Origin: Acidimicrobiia bacterium
GTDB lineage: Bacteria; Actinomycetota; Acidimicrobiia; Spongiisociales; ZC4RG35
Assembly (NCBI GenBank): GCA_036556085.1
Contig: DATBKE010000125.1
Coordinates: 33,008 to 97,007 of the forward strand
Direction: 5' to 3'
Length of the DNA: 64,000 nt
Part shown: positions 1,428-23,971 of the stretch, in pieces
Layout: every line of letters begins with the position of its first letter
Numbering within the stretch: position 1 is the first letter of the stretch
Notes under the pieces: generated by a model
Databases searched by the model: none
Told to the model about the DNA's origin: nothing
What the model saw: the letters and a program-made list of their open reading frames with translations, nothing else
Position numbers and translations under genes: made by a program

Positions 1428-1458
1428 AACAAAAACCCTCCCGGTGGGGAGGGTCGTA
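1428..1458 (-). terminator. intrinsic terminator (attenuator) in the ilvB leader
   Basis: Minus strand reads CCCTCCC-cacc-GGGAGGG followed by TTTTTGTTTCC. It lies between the promoter and the ilvB start codon, so by position it is an attenuator rather than a terminator of an upstream gene. Confidence 0.5.
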
Positions 1459-1490
1459 GGGGCGCACACGCCAGAGTTAGGGCGTATGCG

Positions 1491-1520
1491 CTACGGAAGT
1501 ACGAGGATCTGGTAGGTCAT
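1491..1520 (-). CDS. candidate ilv leader peptide MTYQILVLP (9 aa)
   Basis: The rc of 1491..1520 is ATGACCTACCAGATCCTCGTACTTCCGTAG. It has four consecutive branched-chain codons (Ile-Leu-Val-Leu), lies between a TATAAT -10 box and a hairpin+U-run terminator, and is directly upstream of ilvB. Confidence 0.4.
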   Translation of the reverse strand: MTYQILVLP

Positions 1521-1531
1521 CTTTCGACACC

Positions 1532-1537
1532 ATTATA
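1532..1537 (-). promoter_or_regulatory. -10 box TATAAT of ilvB leader promoter
   Basis: Perfect TATAAT on the minus strand, 12 nt upstream of the leader-peptide ATG. A TTGGCG -35-like hexamer sits at 1554..1559 with a 16-nt spacer. Confidence 0.35.
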
Positions 1538-1545
1538 TCGAGACA

Positions 1546-2727
1546 GTGTCGGCCGCCAACTTTTTCAACCCCGCTCTGCTCGGCGATGCCCTGGCGGCGG
1601 CGAGAATCGCGTTGAGGCGGCTCGACGAGGAGGAGATTCCGGCCCGCGTCAGGGTGGTGGCGAAGAGATCGGGAAAGCTCCCTGCCCCGCTGGCATCGAG
1701 TCTCATCGCCGAGCTCGACCGGAACGAGTGGCTGCGGGAAATCGCTCTCGAGGAGCTGGGCGAGGGTGATGATGCCGGGTCAGAAACGGCATCAGTCGAG
1801 TTCCTGCGAAGGGAACCGGGATGGGAAGAGCGCCTGACGGACCTGGCCGGAAGAGCTGAGTCCACCCTCGCCGAAAGATCTCACCGCCAGATCTCCGAGG
1901 AGCTCGCCGCGGCCAAAGAGGAAATCCAATCCCTGCGGCGTCAACTCCGCAAGAGCCGGCAGACCGGACAGGTTCCGACCAAGAAGGCGGAATCCACCAA
2001 GCGGGAGCTCGACCTCAGCAAGCTGCGAGCCACCTTGAGCTCTGCCCAAAAGGACCTGGACGCATCCGAGGCAGCTCGAGGAGAGCTGATGTCCGAAGTG
2101 GCGCGCTTAGGACAGCGCCTCGAAACTGTGCTCCGTCGCCGGACCGCCAGGTCGGCTCCCCAGCCGGCGCCCGCCCCCGGGATGCGGCGCGGGCCGCTCG
2201 ACCTGGCACGTGACCTTGACGCTCGATTGCAGGCTTTGTCGATGGCTCCGGCCGGGTTCACAACGGCACCGCCTGCACCGGTGAAGGACTCCGGCGGGCC
2301 GCCATCGATTCCGGTCGGAGTCCGCCCCGACACTCCCGCCGCCATCGAGTGGCTCTTGTCGTATCCGGGACCGATGACGGTGGCGGTTGATGGTTGGAAT
2401 CTTGCCTTCCAGCTCAAGAACCCACCGGGTCGGAAGGAACGCAGCCAGGTCGAAGCCGGCGTCGGGCGGCTTTCTCACCGCTCGGCGGGGAAGAGAAAGC
2501 TCTTGGTTCTCTTCGACTCCCGCTTCGATGTGGCCGGCACCTATCGGGGAACGCATCCTCAAGTCGAGGTGCGGTTTCCCGCCTCGGCCGACGAGGCTTT
2601 GATAGAGCTGGCGGGGAAGGAGCCGTCGCTGGTGGTCATCACTTCGGATCGGCGGGTGCGCGAGGAGGCGGGTCGCGCCGGCGCGATCGCGCTCTGGGGC
2701 GAAGCACTGGTCGACTGGCTCAAATGA
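1546..2727 (+). CDS. NYN/PIN-like (YacP-type) domain protein with a long coiled-coil N-terminal region
   Basis: 393-aa ORF. The C-terminal ~130 aa (VAVDGWNLAF...LLVLFDSRFD...VEVRFP...ADEALIEL...VVITSDRRVRE) resembles the NYN RNase fold. The N-terminal 250 aa is charged, heptad-like and Ala/Pro-rich. Start is uncertain. Confidence 0.55.
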   Translation: MSAANFFNPALLGDALAAARIALRRLDEEEIPARVRVVAKRSGKLPAPLASSLIAELDRNEWLREIALEELGEGDDAGSETASVEFLRREPGWEERLTDLAGRAESTLAERSHRQISEELAAAKEEIQSLRRQLRKSRQTGQVPTKKAESTKRELDLSKLRATLSSAQKDLDASEAARGELMSEVARLGQRLETVLRRRTARSAPQPAPAPGMRRGPLDLARDLDARLQALSMAPAGFTTAPPAPVKDSGGPPSIPVGVRPDTPAAIEWLLSYPGPMTVAVDGWNLAFQLKNPPGRKERSQVEAGVGRLSHRSAGKRKLLVLFDSRFDVAGTYRGTHPQVEVRFPASADEALIELAGKEPSLVVITSDRRVREEAGRAGAIALWGEALVDWLK

Positions 2728-3938
2728 AGGTCTTGATTGCCGGCAGCGGCTTCTCGGGATCGATGGTGGCCCGGGGGCTGGCCCGAAAGTCGGGCGTCGA
2801 AGTGATAATCGTCAACGCCGACAATTTTCTGCTTTTCACTCCCATGCTGGCCGAGGCCGCGGTGGGCGACGTCGATCCCCGCCACATCATCGCTCCAATC
2901 CGCCAGCTCGCCCCTGGCGCCGAATTGGTTCAAGGGATTATCGAGTCCATCGATGCCGAGCGGCGCATGGTCGTCGTCAATCGTCTCTTCGGTGAAGTTA
3001 CCGAGTCCATCAGCGCCGACGTCTTGGTTCTGGCATTGGGTTCGGTCAGCAATACCTACGGGGTGGTGGGAGCCGACCAACACGCCCTCCCCTTCAAGAC
3101 CATCGTCGATGCACTGCGGATCCGAAATCGCATCCTGGCCAAGATGGAGGCCGAGGGGAGCGTGTCGGTGGCTGTGGTCGGAGCCGGATTCTCCGGAGCG
3201 GAGTTGACCGCGGCGCTGGCCGACTTCCTTCGCGAGGTGCATCAGCGCTTCTACCGTGCGGGAGCCCCTCCCCGGGTCACCCTCGTGGATGCGGTCGATC
3301 GGGTCACTCCCGCTCTCACTTCTTCGCTCTCGAGGTCAGCGGCCAGGGCACTCGCCAAGCGCGATGTTCGGCTCGTACTCGGATCTGCAGTGACCGCGGT
3401 GAGCACCGAAGGCGTTCAGCTCCAAAGTGGCGAGTTTGTCGAGGCGGGAACCGTGATCTGGGCGGCGGGGATCAAACCGCATCCCCTCTTGGCTCGAACC
3501 GGGCTTGAGACCAATGGCGACAAGATCCCAGTTGACCGGCATTTTCGCTCGGCACGAGAAGGCGTCTATGCGGTGGGTGACGCCGCCCTCTCGCCCACCG
3601 GTGACGGTGGATTCTCGCCCCCCACCGCCCAGTTCGCCCTCCGTCAGGGGAGGTATCTGGGAAGGAATCTCGATGTCATCCAAACCGGTGGGACCGTGGA
3701 GCCGTTTTCCTACCAAACCAAGGGCGAGCTGGTTTCGCTCGGTCATCGCAATGCTGTCGGGAGGGTGCTGGGGATCCCGGTCTCGGGGCTGATTGGCTGG
3801 TTCCTCTGGCGGAGCTACTACTTGCTGCAATTGCCCACCACTCTGCGCAAGGCCCGTGTAGCCGCCGACTGGACCCTCGACCTCTTCTTCCCCCCCGACA
3901 TCGCCTGGCTCCCCAGCTCCGACCTCGGCCCCCTTTAG
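2724..3938 (+). CDS. ndh: FAD/NAD(P)-binding oxidoreductase, type II NADH dehydrogenase (NDH-2)-like
   Basis: MKVLIAGSGFSG Rossmann start, a second GAGFSG dinucleotide motif, a GDAA motif, and a C-terminal membrane-anchoring segment. ATGA overlap with the upstream ORF. The longer frame from 2394 is an N-terminal artefact. Confidence 0.75.
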   Translation: MKVLIAGSGFSGSMVARGLARKSGVEVIIVNADNFLLFTPMLAEAAVGDVDPRHIIAPIRQLAPGAELVQGIIESIDAERRMVVVNRLFGEVTESISADVLVLALGSVSNTYGVVGADQHALPFKTIVDALRIRNRILAKMEAEGSVSVAVVGAGFSGAELTAALADFLREVHQRFYRAGAPPRVTLVDAVDRVTPALTSSLSRSAARALAKRDVRLVLGSAVTAVSTEGVQLQSGEFVEAGTVIWAAGIKPHPLLARTGLETNGDKIPVDRHFRSAREGVYAVGDAALSPTGDGGFSPPTAQFALRQGRYLGRNLDVIQTGGTVEPFSYQTKGELVSLGHRNAVGRVLGIPVSGLIGWFLWRSYYLLQLPTTLRKARVAADWTLDLFFPPDIAWLPSSDLGPL

Positions 3939-5347: not shown

Positions 5348-7461
5348 GTAATTGCACCCATCGGGAAATAGGCCAGCTGTGAGTATTCGGCGACCATGCG
5401 GTGGCTCGAGAACGCCACCAGCGTCGACATGACGGCCTCTCGCATCATCTCCACCCAACCCACCGGCATCCCCTCCTCGTCACGGTCGTAGAAGAGGGGG
5501 GTGACTTCCTCCTCCAGCAGCCGGTACAGGGCCTCGGCGTCATCGCGGTCTTCGCGGCCGTGGTCGTCGTCGCCGGCGGGTGATCCGAAAGCCCAACCGT
5601 TGCGACCGTTGAATCCTTCCACCCACCAACCATCGAGGACAGAGAGATTGAGGGTGCCATTGATGGCGGCCTTCATCCCCGACGTCCCCGACGCCTCCAT
5701 CGGCGGGCGAGGATTGTTGACCCAGACGTCGCATCCCTGAACCATGAAACGGGCCATCCGGGCGTCGTAGTCCTCCAAGACGAATACGTGTCCGCGGAGC
5801 TCCGGCAGCTTCGAGAGCTCGACGATTCGTTTGATGAAATCCTGTCCCTGGCGGTCGGCGGGGTGGGCCTTGCCGGCAAAGACCACCTGCACCGGCCGCT
5901 CGGCATTGGTGACCAGAGCCTGGAATCGATCCAGGTCGTCGAACATGAGCGTGGCTCGTTTGTAGGTAGCGAAGCGACGGGCGAAGCCGAGGGTGAGACA
6001 GTCGTTGGGCAGCATCGTTTCCACCTCGCGGAGTTCTTCCGGAGAGGCGCCGTGGCGGGCGAACTGCCGGCGCAGGCGACCGCGGGCGAAGGTGGTGAAG
6101 ATCTCCTTTCGCTGCTGATGATTGGCCCAGATGTCGGCGAGGGTGAGGGCGGCCAGATGCTGGGGGCCCTCGGGATCGAGGAGAAGATCCGATGGCCAAT
6201 TGGTCCCGAACGTCTCGGAGAGGATGCGGCCGGCATCACGTCCGATCCACGAGGGAGTGTGGACCCCATTCGTAACGGCCGCGGCCGGACCGCCGATGAG
6301 GTATTCCCAGTCGCGGGTTGCTACCTCAGCATGTCGCTTGCTGACTCCGTTGACGATTGAGGACATCTGGATAGCGAAGGCGCCCAGATCGAAGGTGGCA
6401 TGGTCGCGGGCCACACCGAGCTCGGAAAGGTCGCTGGTTCCGTTCTCCATTTCGGTGATGAGCGGACGCAGGTAGTGATCGGCGATACCGCGTTCGAAAA
6501 CCTCGTTGCCGGCAGGTACCGGGGTGTGGAGGGTGAACACGGTCTGCTGTTTGATTGACTTCATCGCCGTGGCCAGGTCGGCGCCGCCAGCGATGCGCTC
6601 TCGAGCCAACTCGAGCAAAGCGAGGGCGGCATGACCCTCGTTGATGTGCCACACGGCCGGCTTGATGCCGAGAGCCTCGAGCGCTCGCACTCCTCCGATC
6701 CCGAGGATCATCTCCTGACAGAACCGCATCGCCCGCCCCCGGACGTACAACGTGTGAGTGATGGGACGGTCACTGACGTCGTTCTCATCGATGTCGGTGT
6801 CGAGCAGCAGGAGAGGTACCCGACCGACGTCGAGCTTCCACACCGCCACCTTGACCGGGCCGTGGGGGAACTCCACCTCTACCTTGAGCTGTCCTCCGGT
6901 GGCCGAGGCGACCGGCCGAACTGGCAGCCGCCGGACGTCGAGGGAGGGATAGATGTGCTGCTGTTCGCCTTCGGCCTCGATCTCCTGACGAAAGTAGCCC
7001 CGGCGAAACAAGAGGCCCACCGCCACTAGCGGGAGGCCGAGGTCGGAGGCGGACTTGAGGTGGTCTCCGGCGAGGATGCCGAGCCCGCCGGAGTAAAAGG
7101 GAACCGAAGCATGGATGCCGAACTCGGTGCAGAGATACGCGATCGGCCCCGACAGCTTCTGCTCTTGCCGCTCATACCAGCTGTCCTCCGCCGACAAGTA
7201 TTGATCGAAGTCGGAGAGAGCTGCCTGGTATCGCTCCTGGACGGCCTCAACCTGATTGATCACCTGCCAGTGTCCGGGGGCGATGGACTCCAATAGGTCG
7301 ATGGGATTGTGGGTGTTATCCCAGGCCACAGGGTCGAGGTTCGACCAGAGGCTGGTGCCGGTGTAGTTCCACGACCACCAGAGGTTGTAGGCCAACTCCA
7401 CCGTTCGGGCATAGGCCGAGGGGATGGCGAACTCGACCTGCGGCAGGGTGGGGATATTCAC
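5329..7461 (-). CDS. glgP: alpha-glucan (glycogen/maltodextrin) phosphorylase, GT35 family
   Basis: 710 aa with LHTPVPAGNE and the PLP-site GTSGMKAAINGTLNLSVLDGWW. Convergent 19-bp overlap with queG. Confidence 0.85.
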   Translation of the reverse strand: MNIPTLPQVEFAIPSAYARTVELAYNLWWSWNYTGTSLWSNLDPVAWDNTHNPIDLLESIAPGHWQVINQVEAVQERYQAALSDFDQYLSAEDSWYERQEQKLSGPIAYLCTEFGIHASVPFYSGGLGILAGDHLKSASDLGLPLVAVGLLFRRGYFRQEIEAEGEQQHIYPSLDVRRLPVRPVASATGGQLKVEVEFPHGPVKVAVWKLDVGRVPLLLLDTDIDENDVSDRPITHTLYVRGRAMRFCQEMILGIGGVRALEALGIKPAVWHINEGHAALALLELARERIAGGADLATAMKSIKQQTVFTLHTPVPAGNEVFERGIADHYLRPLITEMENGTSDLSELGVARDHATFDLGAFAIQMSSIVNGVSKRHAEVATRDWEYLIGGPAAAVTNGVHTPSWIGRDAGRILSETFGTNWPSDLLLDPEGPQHLAALTLADIWANHQQRKEIFTTFARGRLRRQFARHGASPEELREVETMLPNDCLTLGFARRFATYKRATLMFDDLDRFQALVTNAERPVQVVFAGKAHPADRQGQDFIKRIVELSKLPELRGHVFVLEDYDARMARFMVQGCDVWVNNPRPPMEASGTSGMKAAINGTLNLSVLDGWWVEGFNGRNGWAFGSPAGDDDHGREDRDDAEALYRLLEEEVTPLFYDRDEEGMPVGWVEMMREAVMSTLVAFSSHRMVAEYSQLAYFPMGAITQPADA

Positions 7462-23246: not shown

Positions 23247-23971
23247 TCTTGACCCAGCACCCGCCGGATGTCCTCAGGAGCCAGCTCGGGGGGAATCATC
23301 AATCGTGAGCCGCCCTCGATGAGGGGCCTGACCGCCAGGCGGACGTCGGAGGAGGCGGCTACGTAGGTGGCGGCGATCATCAAACCCAGCCACAGCCATC
23401 GCCCGGGTGATGGGAGCCACAGGCTTCCCAGGGCCAACAGAGGGGGGGCGGCCCGGGCGGCTAGGAGCGCCCCCGGGAGCCGTCGGGCGTAAATGAGGAG
23501 AGCGAGCCACGACAGTCCCGCCAGCCAAGGGAGAGGGCCGGGGTCATCACCAAGCGTGACGAGACCAGTCAGGCCTGGAGCAGCGAGGAGTGTCACTGCC
23601 AGCACCGCTGCCTTCGTCGGGATAGGGGCAGCCGAGGTTCGTCCTCGGATCCATCCACCCAGGCGCGGATCGGCGAGGAGAAAGCTGCTGAAGGCTATGA
23701 GCAGCACTCCGAAGTACCAGGGAGTGCTGCGCTCGTGAAGGAGGGCAATGGTCGCCTCAACAACGACGGTGGCCACTCCCAGCCGATAACCGAGTCGACT
23801 GCTCTCAATCAGGATCGCGACCACTGCCAGTGCGGAGGCGATCAGTAAGGAGGCGACGAGAACGAAAGATGTGCCGCGGTGCCACGGCCGTGGTTCATCG
23901 ACCAACACGAAGGCCCATGCCACAGAACATGCCAGGATGGACAGAGTTGCCCACCAGTGACGGCCGCTCAT
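23243..23971 (-). CDS. polytopic integral membrane protein, hypothetical
   Basis: 242 aa, ~7 hydrophobic segments, no recognisable catalytic motif. Confidence 0.5.
   Translation of the reverse strand: MSGRHWWATLSILACSVAWAFVLVDEPRPWHRGTSFVLVASLLIASALAVVAILIESSRLGYRLGVATVVVEATIALLHERSTPWYFGVLLIAFSSFLLADPRLGGWIRGRTSAAPIPTKAAVLAVTLLAAPGLTGLVTLGDDPGPLPWLAGLSWLALLIYARRLPGALLAARAAPPLLALGSLWLPSPGRWLWLGLMIAATYVAASSDVRLAVRPLIEGGSRLMIPPELAPEDIRRVLGQD

Follow-up and report, generated by a model that had tools for sequence, protein, structure and literature searches.

Solid precedents for attenuation upstream of ilvB are found in Corynebacterium glutamicum (PMC11857589, PMC10272879) and Mycobacterium tuberculosis (PMC13236596). 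The ilvB1NC leader of M. tuberculosis was reported in 2026 to be an attenuator, with a terminated transcript of about 120 nt and a translated upstream open reading frame (uORF) rich in codons for branched-chain amino acids (BCAA). Its transcription start site (TSS) was mapped at the start of the uORF, the replacement of LVVI by AAAA abolished induction, and removal of the terminator gave relief; in the model put forward, a ribosome that has reached the stop codon covers the anti-terminator (PMC13236596). For C. glutamicum ilvBNC, a mutational study of 2025 described adjacent antiterminator and terminator hairpins that compete for a boundary trinucleotide (PMC11857589). Here, the leader of ilvB was analysed in a stretch of 64,000 nucleotides from an Acidimicrobiia bacterium (GenBank assembly GCA_036556085.1, contig DATBKE010000125.1, positions 33,008 to 97,007; GC content 64%), hereafter the window. 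This leader is very probably a ribosome-mediated transcription attenuator of the actinobacterial ilvB family, through which the availability of charged tRNAs for Ile, Leu and Val sets the expression of ilvB and, by synteny, that of the genes ilvN and ilvC. It is a short-uORF form within a known and recently validated family, and the mechanism is not new.

Short ORFs with Ile/Val/Leu runs and a terminator upstream of ilvB, resembling the arrangement in the window, were collected by Seliverstov et al. (2005) from Corynebacterium, Mycobacterium and Streptomyces, a set that holds no Acidimicrobiia. Their mode of regulation was described as unclear and, unlike in the window, the ORF overlaps the hairpins (PMC1262725). 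The enterobacterial leaders of ilvBN (ivbL), ilvGMEDA, trp, his and leu share the general principle, in which the ribosome on the leader peptide senses charged tRNA and governs an intrinsic terminator. They differ in their extensive and mutually exclusive 1:2, 2:3 and 3:4 pairings, whereas the element analysed here has no 2:3 pairing and no match to their Rfam leader families. No description of an ilvB attenuator from Acidimicrobiia was found in the searched literature, and it is also absent from Rfam. With 74 species-level genomes that carry the element, the ilvB attenuator of actinobacteria, validated in Corynebacterium and recently in M. tuberculosis alone, now reaches into Acidimicrobiia and further uncultured members of the Actinomycetota.

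Architecture of the ilvB leader

The original prediction had listed a TATAAT box, a nine-codon ORF, two hairpins and a U-run ahead of ilvB, all on the minus strand, and direct reading of the sequence recovered every item with its coordinates. The -10 hexamer TATAAT (1537-1532), seen also in a consensus scan, is preceded at a spacing of 16 nt by a -35-like hexamer TTGGCG (1559-1554; consensus scan). This pair was the sole sigma-70-like site in 6 kb, where shuffled sequences predict 0.5. The start codon of the uORF (ATG at 1520) follows 11 nt after the -10 box. From the promoter geometry, a 5' untranslated region of about 2-4 nt is expected, which would make the uORF near-leaderless. The uORF (1520-1491) has nine codons, ATG ACC TAC CAG ATC CTC GTA CTT CCG TAG, and would encode MTYQILVLP; the putative sensor codons ATC CTC GTA CTT (Ile Leu Val Leu) occupy 1508-1497 and the stop codon 1493-1491.

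The G of the TAG stop codon is the first base of hairpin 1 (H1, 1491-1462), the probable antiterminator, which consists of an 11-bp GC-rich stem and a loop of 8 nt. Its arms, GCGCAUACGCC (1491-1481) and GGCGUGUGCGC (1472-1462), pair with a single wobble, U1486-G1467, and a folding energy of -20.3 kcal/mol. The stem can be extended to 1495-1455 by pairing of CGUA (1495-1492) with UACG (1458-1455) over a CCC bulge (-22.5 kcal/mol). In this extended form, H1 sits flush with the terminator and captures only its first base, G1455. The CGUA:UACG extension is lineage-specific and is not kept in the nearest relatives of the window.

The second hairpin (T, 1455-1425), an intrinsic terminator, was scored terminator-like by the same scan. 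It comprises GACCCUCCC, the loop CACC, GGGAGGGUU and a U-run (UUUUUGUUU), with a folding energy of -16.2 kcal/mol. The core stem is formed by CCCUCCC (1453-1447) and GGGAGGG (1442-1436), and G-U and A-U pairs lengthen it to 1455/1434. Since the neighbouring upstream gene is divergent, T is not the terminator of a preceding gene. The Shine-Dalgarno sequence of ilvB, AAGAGGA (1409-1403), was identified by direct reading, and the gene starts with ATG at 1398. Its first 466 codons (1398-1) lie in the window and the gene extends past the edge. By its match to TIGR00118 (670 bits), the product is the large subunit of a biosynthetic acetolactate synthase. The closest relative (L001) has ilvN and ilvC straight after ilvB, so by synteny the element would stand at the head of an ilvBNC operon.

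The 127-nt leader folds at -48.6 kcal/mol, compared with -27.4 +/- 3 kcal/mol in dinucleotide shuffles (z = -7.1), and none of 200 shuffles matched it. A covariance model built from relatives scored the element at 55.7 bits (E 3.6e-11) and found one copy in the 64-kb window. The next best matches, at 7006-7102 and 23675-23752 on the minus strand (12.9 and 10.3 bits), fall within coding sequence and were discarded. No Rfam family fitted the leader at E-values up to 10, where the only hit was a chance match to CRISPR-DR15 (16.7 bits), and no family reached its gathering score in the entire window. The families without a match include ilvB-OMG and similar ilvB-associated motifs, the amino acid leaders, the ppGpp riboswitch and the T-box.

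Conservation and kinship of the element

Relatives were collected by a scan with an IlvB fragment, taking one genome per species, which gave 80 loci. All of them come from metagenome-assembled genomes (MAGs) of Acidimicrobiia or other Actinomycetota, with IlvB identities of 84-61%. A covariance model (R1) seeded from 15 upstream regions detected exactly one element in 74 of the 80 loci, every time upstream of ilvB and on the same strand, and a 75-sequence alignment was obtained with it. The upstream regions of the relatives carry a TTGAC-17-CATACT promoter, an ATG 8-11 nt further on, and a uORF closing in a run of Ile/Leu/Val codons. The stop codon abuts a GC-rich H1, and directly after it comes T, a (G/A)ACCCUCC...GGAGGGUU hairpin with its U-run. 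TTGAC-type -35 hexamers at 16-18 nt spacing are present in most loci, and the -10 hexamers (CATACT or CATAAT) end 8-11 nt before the uORF ATG, with a mode of 9. A leaderless uORF start appears to be common in the family. It is not universal, because in some sub-lineages (L027, L031, L034, L037, L042, L043, L049, L053 and L056) the recognisable promoter lies farther upstream, which gives the uORF a 5' leader of about 26 nt or longer.

The base pairs of both hairpins are conserved through compensating changes. In the 75-sequence alignment, 92.8% of the cells were paired against 79.3% in shuffles, and both sides had changed in 15 of the 16 modelled pairs (8/8 in H1 and 7/8 in T). The covariation score was 0.40, while shuffles gave 0.17 (0/500 reached 0.40) and partners slid by 1-3 columns gave at most 0.094; the alignment was fitted to the model, a procedure that favours the structure. 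A model-independent run of MAFFT and RNAalifold on 42 leaders found compensatory changes in 6 of the 7 outer H1 pairs. This run misplaced T and retrieved the outer H1 stem alone, and Infernal alignments were used instead. The element is not a chance arrangement.

The comparison of the ILVL codons across ilvB upstream regions, which had been suggested along with the original prediction, was carried out on 69 elements. Ile, Leu or Val occupied positions -2 to -5 before the stop in 94, 100, 100 and 100% of them, encoded by many different codons, against 4% at position -1 and 65% at -6. The uORF varies in length from 8 to 26 codons, with a freely variable N-terminal part and a maintained frame, and its C-terminal pattern is fixed: four to five [ILV] codons, one other codon and the stop. 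Judged by this conservation of the BCAA run with codon variation, the mini-ORF is a genuine reading frame. Rare codons are favoured in the leaders in comparison with ilvB of the same loci; GTA makes up 70% against 6% of the Val codons, CTT 32% against 7% and ATT 41% against 11%, these being counts of sequences and not of independent events. GUA and CUU are the control codons reported for C. glutamicum (PMC11857589), and GUA for M. tuberculosis (PMC13236596).

The uORF ends with TAG in 58 of 63 elements (92%). Among the long open frames of the window, 53 end with TGA, 15 with TAG and 10 with TAA, which places TAG at about 19%. The preference for TAG, together with the preceding codon, might lengthen the dwell time of the ribosome at the stop. 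Alternatively, it may simply reflect that the G of TAG makes the first base pair of H1. The codon before the stop is never one for Ile, Leu or Val, and it is Pro (CCG) throughout the clade of the window.

A group of MAGs labelled 'Actinomycetes' or 'Actinomycetota' had appeared to lack the element. This was overturned when the model located it about 400 nt farther upstream, before an extra ORF. In these genomes, the uORF, H1 and T lie 400-480 nt upstream of ilvB (in L030 at about 2640-3000; also in L032, L033, L035, L036, L039-L041, L044, L046, L048, L050, L052, L054, L055, L057 and L064), and H1 is longer and bulged. A conserved ORF of about 110 amino acids (MRYEFERDG..VASVLWEGPGQV...RRRDWTPWEFERA.RNL...VETGPVE) stands between the element and ilvB, its stop codon overlapping the start codon of ilvB. 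Pfam gave no match for this ORF, and its product appears to be co-regulated with ilvB.

The leader of M. tuberculosis was retrieved by protein search and contig look-up. It was compared with a second model (R2), built solely from the 75 MAG elements. With filters off, R2 matched the M. tuberculosis ilvB1 leader (L081, 1359-1458) at 25.0 bits (E about 8e-4) and that of M. camsae (L082) at 21.6 bits (E 5e-3), the E-values being rough given a shortened calibration. The codons, H1 and T were in register in both matches. The M. tuberculosis uORF has its ATG at the mapped start, 8 nt after the -10 box, its product is MDKAGKPGMLVVIGRRVGA and its sensor reads CTC GTA GTA ATT. The hairpin GCGUUGGUGC/GCACCAACGC starts 5 nt past the sensor run, and the terminator, GACCCUCG...CGAGGGUUUUUU, abuts it directly. 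The order of parts, the 5-nt distance from sensor to hairpin and the nearly identical T arms are common to both leaders. The proposed logic, in which the anti-terminator is hidden once the ribosome stands at the stop codon, would also be shared. In contrast, the 19-codon uORF of M. tuberculosis crosses the 5' arm of the hairpin and ends in the loop, whereas the nine codons in the window end at the hairpin base. The M. tuberculosis hairpin base can reach 3-4 nt into the T arm when the ribosome is stalled upstream, against an overlap of 0-1 nt in the window, and its terminator stem is longer and interrupted.

Corynebacterium ilvB-II and C. glutamicum ilvBNC were compared by their published descriptions. 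They also have a BCAA-rich uORF, there 1 nt from the TSS, with the codons CUU and GUA; the bases of antiterminator and terminator meet, as in the window, and the function of the terminator has been shown by mutation (PMC10272879, PMC11857589). Corynebacterium differs by a third hairpin, an anti-antiterminator spanning the uORF, and by a 3-nt GCC boundary that its antiterminator and terminator share. No such third hairpin is present in the Acidimicrobiia-type element, where a ribosome at the stop codon would fill that role.

Strong comparative evidence speaks for a leader-peptide transcription attenuator at ilvB: promoter, mini-ORF and both hairpins are conserved in 74 of 80 loci. The claim is also backed by the covariation in both hairpins, by the codon-variable Ile/Leu/Val run and by the detectable kinship with the validated M. 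tuberculosis ilvB1 attenuator. The sensor (CUC GUA CUU), the hairpin and the arms of the terminator are conserved across the phylum. The 75-sequence alignment and its model could seed a family and aid the annotation of small ORFs and 5' leaders in these genomes.

The proposed switch between the two hairpins

The Acidimicrobiia-type element is distinguished by a uORF stop at the base of H1, not in its loop, and by an H1 and T that abut and rarely share bases. In 29 of 63 elements, the stop codon began 2 nt ahead of the base of H1 (range -6 to +5), and the BCAA run ended 5 nt before H1 in 27 of 63, which is the mode. The gap between H1 and T was 2 nt or less in 51 of 63 elements, and in the window the extended H1 closes it to 0. 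In minimum-energy folds of 47 leaders masked by a ribosome, H1 was 95% intact with the A site at the first sensor codon, 50% at the last and 1% at the stop codon. The folding with the start of the leader masked, also suggested at the outset, thus gave an H1 that switches from 95% to 1% intact and a T that is always formed.

On the attenuation reading, transcription would begin a few bases upstream of the uORF ATG, with the ribosome loading on the leaderless or near-leaderless 5' end. A ribosome covers about 12 nt beyond its A site. When BCAA are plentiful, it would pass ATC CTC GTA CTT CCG and reach TAG, where its footprint would mask the entire 5' arm of H1. With H1 prevented, T, located 0-6 nt downstream, would fold freely and the polymerase would stop in the U-run before ilvB. 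When BCAA are scarce, the ribosome would stall on the rare sensor codons AUC, CUC or GUA with its front edge short of H1. H1 would then form flush against the base of T and hinder its completion, and read-through into ilvB would increase. The direction of this switch is taken from the experiments in M. tuberculosis and C. glutamicum. By the same analogy, H1 is most likely the antiterminator, intact under stalling on the Ile/Leu/Val codons and melted with a ribosome at the stop, and not a 1:2 element.

The search for an antiterminator pairing comprised three tests on 45-47 leaders, and their outcome weighs against this reading. No alternative pairing that excludes T was found, and T was part of the minimum-energy fold in all ribosome states (mean 0.95-0.98 of its pairs). 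When transcripts were truncated ahead of the 3' arm of T and folded by partition function, its 5' arm was mostly unpaired in all states (P 0.15-0.29). By duplex energies, nothing among the H1 loop, both H1 arms, the spacer and the uORF run paired with either T arm better than shuffles, and for the H1 arms the complementarity to T fell below that of shuffles (z about +1.1). A Corynebacterium-style pairing of the H1 loop with the 3' shoulder of T was not enriched (z +0.26). H1 took at least two terminator bases in just 7 of 45 loci, and in the window only G1455. The gap of 0-2 nt also depends partly on including the weak A-U and G-U pairs at the base of T. Corynebacterium stood as a precedent (PMC11857589, PMC10272879), but Streptomyces proved weaker than had been claimed; codon substitutions upstream of S. 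coelicolor ilvBNC reportedly had no effect, so members of the wider family are not all alike (PMC1262725).

Because all three fold and duplex tests were negative, the classical 2:3 alternative pairing, which the original prediction had assumed and could not resolve by eye, does not exist in this element. The same folding test was applied to the validated M. tuberculosis leader and T was likewise formed in every state at equilibrium. Therefore, a negative equilibrium fold does not exclude attenuation. The extension of the hairpin base into T was the only antagonism seen in the M. tuberculosis folds.

Since at most one base is common to H1 and T in the window, equilibrium pairing cannot explain how H1 would block T. 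A steric or kinetic effect of the flush helix inside the exit channel for RNA in the polymerase is a speculation. A possible though doubtful form of it is steric antitermination by abutting helices that share no bases, with H1 of this lineage placed within 0-2 nt of the base of T and flush with it. The 5'-most nucleotide of T would be deepest in the exit channel, and the rigid 11-bp helix attached to it could block the closing of the last T pairs. A ribosome at the stop would relieve the block by turning the 3' arm of H1 into a flexible single strand, and the near-universal TAG and the Pro-stop of the window clade might prolong its dwell for this relief. If true, such a mode could underlie the minimal overlaps of 3-4 nt in Mycobacterium and Corynebacterium. 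The present element is a minimal two-hairpin version with almost no overlap between antiterminator and terminator, and it sharpens the question posed by M. tuberculosis and C. glutamicum of how adjacent hairpins decide termination.

The missing overlap would also suit an H1 that does not act on T at all. H1 could be merely a pause signal for the polymerase or a stabilising 5' structure, with T a constitutive partial terminator, or the product could be a small RNA of about 95 nt or a 9-residue peptide that acts in trans. The short transcript is bounded by a promoter and a terminator, as this explanation needs, and the terminated leader RNA is abundant in M. tuberculosis (PMC13236596). Trans functions of attenuator RNAs and leader peptides are described for Sinorhizobium (PMC7968998, PMC7298713). 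Nevertheless, the strict run of rare Ile/Leu/Val codons, the placement at ilvB only, the single copy per region searched and the fixed spacing of stop, H1 and T are what a cis-acting sensor of amino acids needs, and the peptide shows no conservation in its N-terminal part. We regard this explanation as very improbable.

A classical four-segment attenuator of the E. coli type follows textbook logic and was the assumption of the original prediction. H1 would be the 1:2 pause or protector hairpin, and a stalled ribosome would melt it, so that segment 2 could pair with the 5' arm of T. It is true that an A site on the last Leu codon melts about half of H1. However, the 3' arm of H1 against the 5' arm of T gave a mean of only -1.6 kcal/mol, compared with -4.0 kcal/mol for shuffles (z +1.1), and the 5' arm of T was unpaired in truncated transcripts of the stalled state (0.15-0.18). 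The stop is fixed at the base of H1 and the sensor run lies 5 nt upstream of it; therefore, reaching the stop, and not stalling, melts H1. This arrangement is thus very improbable.

Translational attenuation is equally hard to reconcile with the data. The sensor AUCCUC would pair with the ilvB Shine-Dalgarno GAGGA and block translation unless a stalled ribosome covers the sensor codons. The minimum-energy fold of the window leader does pair UCCUC with GAGGA around both hairpins, and the mycobacterial polycysteine leaderless uORFs provide a precedent (bioRxiv 10.1101/834739). Across 43 loci, however, the uORF run paired with the region upstream of ilvB no better than shuffles (z +0.47; none below -1), and the conserved, covarying terminator with its U-run indicates transcriptional control.

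A metabolite- or tRNA-binding riboswitch (ppGpp riboswitch or T-box), known upstream of ilvB in some other phyla and in the ppGpp case shown to control some ilvB genes (PMC10272879), can practically be dismissed, given that the Rfam searches of leader and window gave no match and that the RNA is built of two simple hairpins whose loops vary, lacks a conserved unpaired core and has the reading frame as its conserved single-stranded part.

Neighbouring genes

The divergent gene upstream of the leader (1531-2727, plus strand) has 393 codons and a coherent periodicity of GC content at third codon positions, and neither NCBIfam nor Pfam gave a family for it. The earliest start codon available to it, GTG at 1546, is not preceded by a Shine-Dalgarno sequence and lies 9 nt past a plus-strand CATTAT (1531-1536), which overlaps the minus-strand TATAAT. 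By this arrangement, two face-to-face -10 boxes may drive leaderless transcripts in both directions. From about residue 110 onwards, a further ORF on the plus strand (2394-3938) matches families of pyridine nucleotide-disulfide oxidoreductases, with a TIGR03169 score of 142 bits that stays below the curated cut-off. Its true start is probably near 2720, just past the end of the divergent gene.

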